DNA from: Callorhinchus milii
Taxonomy: Eukaryota
NCBI RefSeq assembly: GCF_018977255.1
Contig: NW_024704742.1
Location: 56,980,001 to 57,044,000 of the forward strand
Direction of reading: 5' to 3'
DNA: 64,000 nt
Under the pieces are notes generated by a model. The model did no database searches. It was not told the origin of the DNA and saw nothing but the letters and a program-made list of their open reading frames with translations. The position numbers were made by a program, and so were the translations under genes. Shown here piece after piece: positions 50,033-52,548 of this stretch (positions within the stretch are counted from its first letter, which is position 1; every line of letters starts with the position of its first letter).

Positions 50033-51166
50033 CTGAAACACAAAATATCACAGAAACAGCCAGATCAGTCAGAATTTTTGAAAGGTTAGGCACAAAATTC
50101 CGTTAAGGTTATACATGCCCCCTGCACTTGTTACATCAGATGTTGAAAGTGAGTGACTGAACTGGATTCGAATGCAGGCCAAATGATCCTTGCATTTGAT
50201 ATTTTGTAGTGGAGTGACAGTGTATTTGTGGATGAACGTGGCAGCCAATTTACATGCAGCAATCAACAGCAACAAGATTCCATTTATAGAGCGCCTTTAA
50301 TAATCCTTGCATTTGATATAGCGCTTTTCACGTCGGGAGGACGTCCCAAGGCGCTGTACAGTTGGGTCAGGACCCGATCAGGGGGGAAATGGTGAGGGGA
50401 GGGAAGGGAGGGAGCGAGGAGGGGGTAGAGAGTCGAGAGGGGAGCTGAAGGCACGGTCAAAGAGAAGCAATGTCTCACAGAAAGCCATCAAGTAAATAAC
50501 AAACTTTTTCTGGGGGATTGTTGTCCAGATGACCGGAGGAAACTCCATTCTCTTTTTGAATTTTTACTATGGAACCTTGAGCGCCCACCCAAACAGGCAC
50601 AGATGGGGCCTTGCTTTAAATCGTTCAAGATGGCACCTCCAACCATGTAGTGTAGATGAGATGGTACAGGGATAATATAATACTTTTCAGTCACTGAGAA
50701 GTGGATTCAGATCTAGCGCTGAATGAAGAGACAAAGTGATCTTGTACAAATAGTTTTGTAAGCAATGAGCTGGGCCAATGGAAAAGTGCGGGCGCACATT
50801 TTCTGCATTTTCCGCCAAAACGGCCCTCATCCGCTACAAACAGCCCCTCAGGTAATAACCTTTACACACAGTGCGCCAGGCCCCAGGCCACTCGCATTGT
50901 TTGCTCAGTGATACTACTATGGTCCGCACATGCGGTGGCCTGCGGTGAATTTTGGGATTGCGGAAGCGGCATGTGCGGAAAAACCACTTCGCTGGTAAAT
51001 AAACCTCGATACAAAAAGCAGCCGCGTCACACTACTGCGACAAACTCGTGGTAAGTGCTGTACTATTAAAATATTTAGTATCTTAAACATAAACTGCATT
51101 TTCAGGAAATATATACCTATAGTTTTAATCCGTGTTGTTTTACTTTTTAGGTTGTACAATACAAAA

Positions 51167-52420
51167 ATGTCCAAACGTTTTTGTAAACCCCGTGAGGAAG
51201 CCCAGGGGCAGCCGTCTCATTATCCGTCAGTCCCTCAGATTGAACTGTAATCTATCCAGATGAACTTTATAAAGGGGGGCAGTTGTTCTGCCGCATTTGC
51301 TGTCACGCAATTTACCATGTTTACAAGTGCACCATTGATGACCACGTGAAATCTCTGAAACATTGTGAACCCAAGGCAGCAGCAATAAAGAAAAAAAAAT
51401 GAAGGTAAAATACTTTTGATATACTTAATATTAAATGAAAATGTATCATTATTTGCTTTCACTATCATTTTGAAAGAAAATCTTAATCACCTCTCGGCTT
51501 GACTTCTCTAACGCCCTCTTTGCCGGTCTGCCATCCACCACCATCCATAAAAACCAAATCATCCAAAACTCTGCCATCCGCATTCTCATCCGCTTGAAAC
51601 TCCGCTCCCTGATCACCCCGGTCCTTGCCAGACTGCACTGACTGCCAATCCCAGAGAGGATCGATTCCAAGATCCTCACCCTTGTATTCAAGTCCCTGCA
51701 CTCCTCTGCACGCCCCTACCTCTCTGACCTCCTCTCTCCTCAAACCAGTACCCGTTGCCTTTGTTCTTCCAGGTCTGGCCTCCTCCTCATCCCCCAAGTC
51801 CTCCGCTCCACCCTTGGCGGTCGTGCCTTCAGCCACTATGCCGAGGCTCTGGAATTCCCTTCTTCACTCCCTTTGCCTCGCCCCCTCTCTTCCTACTTTC
51901 AGGTCCCTTCTGAAGACCTTTCTTTTCGACTGCGCCTTTGGTCACGTTCCTCTCCCTCCCCCTGGCTCGGCCCCGGGATTTGTTTCTGTGAAGCGCTCTG
52001 AGACGCCGTCCGGCGTGGAGGGCGCTGTATAAATCCAAGTTGTTGTTGTTGTTAATCCCAACATAAAACAAACACAGCAAACAAAAACAAATAGATGGAA
52101 CATTTCTAATGACAAATGCATCACGAAGATCAATTTTTTTTTTTTCCTTTCTAGGTGGTTCTGCACCTCAAAGACAACTTGATCCGACAACCTGCTTCTC
52201 TAGAGCCTCTGCATCATCAACGGAGAGGAAAGAATTCAAATTGGACATTGTGCGGTGTTTGACTAGAGCAGACATACCACTTGAAAAGCTCCTGCCTTCC
52301 AAGAGTTTCTATGCAACTGCACGAAACAGGGAGGGAGTATTCCAATACCAGCAGCTTCGTAATATATACTTATTCCTGAGCATGAAGTATTTTTGAAGAA
52401 ACATGTTGAGGACACGAATG
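51167..52420 (+). pseudogene. Degenerate CGGBP1-like transposase N-terminus (zf-BED plus IPLEK/GGSIP domain), two coding exons ~51167-51404 and ~52155-52420
   Basis: VSPSD*TVIYPDELYKGGQLFCRICCHAIYHVYKCTIDDHVKSLKH (51226-51363), then DIVRCLTRADIPLEK, PAFQEFL...KQGGSIP and QQLRNIYL across frameshifts. Resembles human CGGBP1 as recalled. Contains stops and frameshifts. Confidence 0.8.
51486..52053 (+). mobile_element. L2 LINE 3' fragment nested in the intron of the hAT element
   Basis: Degenerate [11 protein letters not shown]...KTFLFD with a (GTT)n tail; TTAATC at both junctions. Confidence 0.9.
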
Positions 52421-52548
52421 CAAAATGCGCTTCTCAGTAGCACCAATCCAGCCCTCCGCAATTTTCCGCAAATTTGTGAAGCACTCCGCAATTTTTTAGC
52501 AAATATTTATTTCTGCACTTTTCTTTTGGCCCAGGCAATGTGTAAACC

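Follow-up and report, generated by a model that had tools for sequence, protein, structure and literature searches.

A dead deletion derivative of a CGGBP-type hAT transposon in Callorhinchus milii and the clustered breakpoints of its family

CGGBP proteins arose from hAT transposons, mainly those of the hAT-19 group, dozens of times, and most of them bind CGG-type motifs in subterminal DNA (PMC8097297); the hAT-19 origin is also supported by PMC9004415. The link between hATs and CGGBPs is already published. The closest described relatives of the family presented here are the CGGBP-type hATs of the Repbase hAT-19 subclass (hAT-19_Crp, hAT-13_LCh; Yellan, Yang and Hughes 2021, PMC8097297), with which it shares the zf-BED plus Hermes-type N-terminus, the CGG/GCG-type subterminal motifs and an element length of 2-3 kb. 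It differs from them in its host: Table S1 of PMC8097297 names no cartilaginous fish and our family comes from one. With this family, the range of species carrying CGGBP-type hATs comes to include a cartilaginous fish, and our literature search found no paper on it in a chimaera or shark (it may be present in Repbase or Dfam).

Three other systems invite comparison. Host CGGBPs (human CGGBP1 and those of fish and coelacanth) possess the same two domains and are similar in length to the product after deletion, but the element described here still lies between terminal inverted repeats (TIRs) and a target site duplication (TSD), is dead and neutral, and has an intron between the finger and the second domain; the reading frame of human CGGBP1 (167 residues) is contained in one exon (PMC11575156), so that this coding intron is not shared. 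Ac/Ds-type deletion derivatives and microhomology-mediated miniaturisation (PMC3814204) have in common with our elements the retention of both ends, 1-8 matching bases and amplification in trans, but here the left breakpoints are concentrated within 180 bases next to predicted hairpins. Finally, the KP form of the Drosophila P element (PMC4938643) likewise has a frame that keeps the DNA-binding front and ends soon after the junction, but it belongs to another superfamily and is one intact functional form, whereas here we find many junctions and no intact copy.

The window, that is the whole stretch of 64,000 nucleotides analysed, contains an element which is almost certainly a dead deletion derivative. 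A first-pass annotation had read it as a hAT derivative that lost the catalytic domain and kept a CGGBP-like N-terminus, and this reading is borne out by a 2.8-kb parent, by the absence of about 1,499 bases of it and by profile matches, all detailed below. Its features are the following.

50762..50769, no strand: left TSD of 8 bp, GCAATGAG, with 7/8 identity to 52535-52542 and a central AT that fits the family preference
50770..50789, + strand: left TIR, pairing with the right TIR; 283 exact matches define the family, with 0 in the control
50790..51050, + strand: 5' subterminal region with the first non-coding exon; GCGG/CCGC motifs are frequent here and are likely bound by the transposase (inferred from PMC8097297)
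51051..51150, + strand: predicted intron 1, in the 5' UTR; GT in 42/45 copies, AG in 41/44
51167..51404, + strand: first coding exon, with a zf-BED-type finger at 51289-51363, a 1-base loss at about 51212, TGA at 51241 and an extra A in 51391-51399
51405..52154, + strand: intron 2, phase 1; GT in 45/50 and AG in 43/48 copies; about 230 bases long elsewhere; exact joins for two other copies
51488..52053, + strand: 3' fragment of a LINE with GTT tail, a later insertion not present in other copies, with very high repeat depth and LINE-like frames
52155..52419, + strand: beginning of the second coding exon, which encodes the Hermes-type part for DNA binding and dimerisation, with frameshifts near 52283, 52350 and 52368
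52419..52420, + strand: internal-deletion junction, about 1,499 bases of the parent gone
52420..52514, + strand: 3' subterminal region with three CCGCAA repeats
52515..52534, - strand: right TIR, pairing with the left TIR at 18/20
52535..52542, no strand: right TSD, GCAATGTG, 7/8 against the left flank

The TIRs (18/20, 50770-50789 and 52515-52534) and the 7/8 TSD had been noticed in the first pass and are confirmed. Since an inverted match of 18/20 also arose in 5/20 shuffles of the 3.5-kb region, the ends of the element are proven by the family and not by the TIR alone. The genome-wide search for further copies that had been proposed was carried out with a 21-letter TIR pattern, which has 283 exact matches in the 992-Mb assembly and none in the control, and short TIRs are indeed common to dispersed copies, as in hATs. 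The same superfamily is indicated by the 8-bp TSD, with 7/8 identity in the window copy and matching flanks of 6-8 of 8 bases in 14/19 copies first seen with both ends, the preferred target being centred on AT. The ends of hAT elements usually read CAG; those of the present family read CTGGG and depart from the usual form. The GCGG-rich character ascribed to the ends also holds: GCGG/CCGC occurs 12 times in both ends together against 4.45 in shuffles, and 9 times in the 5' subterminal region against 3.6 (0/500 shuffles in each case), the enrichment being confined to the two ends and lacking in the coding part. By analogy, these repeats inside both ends are putative targets of the finger and the Hermes-type domain. 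At a distance of about 0.7 kb from the element, which is on the + strand, there is an internal exon of a gene on the minus strand that encodes PXA and RGS domains and is presumably sorting-nexin-25-like; the element is thus likely intronic and antisense to this gene. The PXA and RGS exons of this host gene (a sorting nexin) occupy window positions 6609-50035 on the minus strand, in a region packed with LINE fragments.

In the majority sequence of 17 long copies the element is 2.8 kb long and has a single open frame, 595 codons in two coding exons, which passes through the motifs FLDETTD, CIAH, RW and ERSFS and runs to the hAT C-terminal domain. (A third splice donor after EDTDV, seen in the first majority sequence, was rejected as an artefact of mixed deletion classes.) The nearest named relatives of the family protein are a 585-aa protein of the teleost black sea bass, 44% identical over the full length and carrying a Pfam Dimer_Tnp_hAT match of E 4.8e-12 plus a match to DUF659, and a sea-urchin protein with Dimer_Tnp_hAT, 34% identical; the majority frame and the former match thus indicate an autonomous partner with the DDE catalytic part and C-terminal domain of hATs. 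Identity to fish proteins named CGGBP1 or CGGBP1-like is 29-33% over approximately 140-200 residues, and the protein P0003 is matched with an E of 4e-21 in a small database. The similarity of both window exons to CGGBP, on which the initial reading had been made to depend, was found when 14 CGGBP-like proteins of fish were combined into a profile (Prob 96.6 and E 5.9e-10 for the finger part, Prob 93.5 and E 2.3e-7 for exon 2), in agreement with a hAT-19, CGGBP-type element with a CGGBP-like N-terminus. Pfam returned nothing useful for six family pieces, as PMC8097297 also reports for CGGBP1; a word-index search with a 123-aa piece against longer proteins yielded no match, and a PDB sequence search with exon 1 only hits with E of at least 0.6. 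Amniote CGGBP1 did not appear among 15, 40 and 150 matches (10 of the 150 looked up by name) and the human comparison consequently rests on the papers cited.

The gene-like layout first described for the window copy is present at the sites named (donor 51051, acceptor 51150, ATG 51167, donor after 51404, acceptor 52154), as is the C-x2-C-x14-H-x5-H finger at 51289-51363. ADIPLEK, GGSIP and QLRNIYL all fall within exon 2 as claimed, but the frames alternate between them. That the copy is dead through frameshifts is equally correct, since it carries five of them together with a stop at codon 26; its changes number 4 synonymous and 27 non-synonymous. The positions of this stop (TGA 51241) and of the nine-A run at 51391-51399 are confirmed, but the suggested CpG decay of CGA is rejected in favour of an A>T change on AGA, the codon found there in 29/43 copies with letters at this place, CGA occurring in none. 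The same stop is common to two other copies, one long and one differently deleted, and thus may predate the deletion of the window copy. The approximately 1,499 bases lost in this deletion comprise the catalytic and C-terminal domains as well as the stop codon, and extend over most of the 3' UTR. Its junction was found once and lies 11-13 bases from a junction common to 8 copies; the window copy may have moved already deleted, or may have lost further bases in place. About 50 bases of intron 2 are also missing beside the LINE insertion (51488..52053), which we take to be an L2.

A check of the two introns in RNA had been suggested, and it succeeded for one of them. Two sequencing runs that are presumed to be RNA contain contigs in which exon 1 passes into exon 2 precisely at the predicted sites, while no join for intron 1 was seen among these contigs. 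The spliced contigs map to copies on C7 and C5, both long and dead, whose genomic sequence retains intron 2, and a DNA form lacking the intron and matching these contigs was not found; the window copy is represented in the RNA-type runs by unspliced pieces within the host intron only. Since full-length copies have the same two introns, the spliced layout is that of the transposase gene and not of a cassette.

For the census of the family, DNA searches with the two element halves gave 275 and 164 candidates, 40 of each being scored. In all, 68 distinct copies containing transposase sequence were gathered, and 17 of these are close to full length. An independent exon-1 pattern retrieved 12 copies, of which 9 had already been gathered, so that the set probably comprises most coding copies. 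Transposase sequence lies within 1.5 kb of 4/29 of the first distinct TIR ends. Most elements with the family TIRs are non-coding, 0.5-1 kb long or longer and about 70% alike, some with internal tandem repeats (L123-L152, e.g. L138, L142, L148 and L151); they are MITE-like partners of the family. Non-CpG divergence from the majority sequence has a median of 7.05% in 59 copies and amounts to 7.2% in the window copy; this divergence of about 7% and a nearly star-shaped tree point to a single old burst. Close relatives cluster on one contig in several cases, as expected from local hopping (C12 8.1-8.9 Mb, L023/L064/L024/L122; C5 44-46 Mb, L062/L068/L016/L105; C1 113-114 Mb, L060/L070; C4 37.6-37.7 Mb, L006/L121). 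The mobility attributed to deleted forms is sustained by two junctions common to 8 and 6 copies at separate sites.

A peculiarity of the family is a G>T stop at codon 107 (window approximately 52232), found in 21/51 copies, or about 40%, the next commonest G>T reaching 16%. It is present in 10/21 long and 8/30 catalytic-less copies, which indicates that templates already dead underwent amplification and deletion just as the rest did, and that deletions with the same breakpoints also occurred on templates unable to make the second domain. Its carriers are not one clade and no second variant clearly linked to it was found; it may stem from a dead master or from conversion between copies, and gene conversion could spread it across deletion classes.

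The notion of a CGGBP-only cassette as a working gene did not survive, given stops before the second domain, substitutions that look neutral and no intact copy at all. An intact frame was found in 0/32 copies with both exons (0/37 in another count), the window copy itself having five frameshifts and a stop, and there is no intact truncated frame of the KP type either. With the mutation spectrum taken from the element's own non-coding DNA, the rare-substitution ratio is 1.08 for codons 1-174, 1.30 in the 8 copies of the shortest class and 0.96 for the catalytic part, values that give no sign of the purifying selection expected of a domesticated gene. The uncorrected pN/pS of 0.68 for codons 1-174 and the number of rare stops (26 seen, about 36 expected after scaling) mean that there may have been weak past selection on these codons. 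A selected CGGBP function is nonetheless very likely absent, and the truncated frame is best regarded as a side product of the deletion.

As a whole, we consider it highly probable that the element is a dead deleted copy of a hAT whose transposase started with a CGGBP-type DNA-binding head. The deletion likely resulted from interrupted repair of an excision gap, in which the host would copy the element back from both ends, stall and join the strands at 1-8 matching bases; the copy was then likely moved by transposase from full-length copies. Stalling or breakage might be favoured at short hairpins where the DNA-binding meets the catalytic part, and most deleted copies would in that way keep a front end of CGGBP size.

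The distribution of the breakpoints is in line with such a mechanism. The whole catalytic region is lacking in 32/68 copies, 31 of which break at parent positions 1020-1200, and the earlier impression that the window copy kept the CGGBP region holds to this extent for the deletions of the family as well. These 180 bases form the end of the CGGBP part, adjoin the best-folding coding stretch and contain many different junctions. Among distinct large junctions starting downstream of exon 1, 20/29 begin in these 180 of 1,680 bases, the 29 being non-independent events partly gathered by a DNA query that favoured copies with such junctions; of copies picked by the exon-1 pattern alone, 9/12 break in the same zone. 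The junctions mostly carry 1-8 matching bases. In predicted folding, no 60-mer of the element has a lower energy than the one that begins at parent position 1181. As regards the coding exons, the best fold is that of the segment 1171-1260 (z -3.3, ranking third among 61 windows), and the two most frequent breakpoints, 1160 and 1189, fall inside predicted hairpins.

The main rival to a hotspot is the nesting of deletions around a few founders, whereby two or three early derivatives would have been amplified and later small deletions would have nibbled their junctions. We regard this as possible, at somewhat less than an even chance. Breakpoints are reused stepwise (1189/2503, 1189/2646, 1160/2645, 1129/2645, 1159/2658), the window junction is close to that of 8 copies (11-13 bases, as above), and a test on 6 copies of the commonest short class did not reject one origin for it (AU p 0.36). 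A single clade of catalytic-less copies is instead rejected (AU p 0.014; 23/48 rows, the tree having 48/59 rows with enough columns), at least 4 junctions cannot nest in each other, and there are pairs of closely related copies, one short and one long, that sit on the same chromosome arm. The short member of one such pair has 13 rare substitutions and 3 indels in common with its long neighbour, against 0-1 with other short copies. Clustering through many junctions, this short-long sister pair and the predicted hairpins would together point to a deletion hotspot at the DNA level and not to selection; we judge the chances of a hairpin-linked cause to be evenly balanced. That a built-in hotspot repeatedly and independently shed mobile, spliced mini-genes of CGGBP1 size is a more ambitious proposition and an unlikely one; if true, CGGBP genes, and repressors of the KP kind, would become available ready-made from such a hotspot, which would go some way towards explaining the dozens of CGGBP domestications.

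Selection would enter if the spliced truncated product of 140-190 residues, with finger and dimerisation part and without the catalytic one, had bound the ends or poisoned transposase multimers, damping transposition as a KP-like repressor and forming a step before CGGBP domestication. There is precedent in the 207-residue truncated transposase KP, which represses P elements in Drosophila (PMC4938643); all 15 junction types end the frame within 141-193 codons, 31/32 catalytic-less copies retain most of the CGGBP part, and splicing of intron 2 is seen for two copies. These two, however, are long and dead, substitutions are neutral with no intact copy, and the stop at codon 107 in 8/30 catalytic-less copies, like that at codon 26 in the lineage of the window copy, would have precluded the product. 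Moreover, the same stretch is a frequent end point for deletions in which the CGGBP part itself is lost (6 junctions, with ends at 1071-1230). We consider such a repressor improbable. The reading as a domesticated host CGGBP gene later turned pseudogene has in its favour a spliced layout and size resembling host CGGBPs and the gene models on other copies (A0A4W3HW17, A0A4W3I9B9, A0A4W3GIQ4), but it is already contradicted, and hardly credible, in view of intact TIRs and TSD, a divergence equal to that of the family, the 4 synonymous versus 27 non-synonymous changes and the mapping of those gene models, at 96-100%, onto copies with frameshifts and stops.

The window locus itself matters little, being one dead intronic copy; the clustering of breakpoints is the one lead worth pursuit, and the mapped junctions provide material to test DNA structure against selection in the cutting of hAT transposases to CGGBP size. 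The generality of a hairpin hotspot is spoken against by a second CGGBP-type hAT of the assembly, in which no matching fold is predicted at that place.

The UniRef entries A0A4W3HW17, A0A4W3I9B9, A0A4W3GIQ4 and A0A4W3HSA0 are gene models over decayed copies of the family (L007, L010, L055, L092). Several 'uncharacterised' CGGBP-like gene models of C. milii are therefore dead transposon copies, which calls for caution in counts of domesticated CGGBPs. A search with carp CGGBP for a separate, intact host gene gave 7 matches, none of this kind: they correspond to two small contigs that carry the second element, to a decayed element and to two copies of the family. The second CGGBP-type hAT (L111:2275-5691 on C400, and L112 on C429) is different from the first; its ends are long and match each other, and its three coding exons are open. 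It is 76-84% identical to teleost-type proteins and approximately 30-35% to the window family, and lies within a Gypsy-type element on two small contigs richer in GC and CpG. It has either come in recently by horizontal transfer or belongs to fish DNA contaminating the assembly. The decayed element (L191, C5:62150417-62153599) is a piece of a third CGGBP-type hAT family, in which the finger and the second domain are recognisable with stops.
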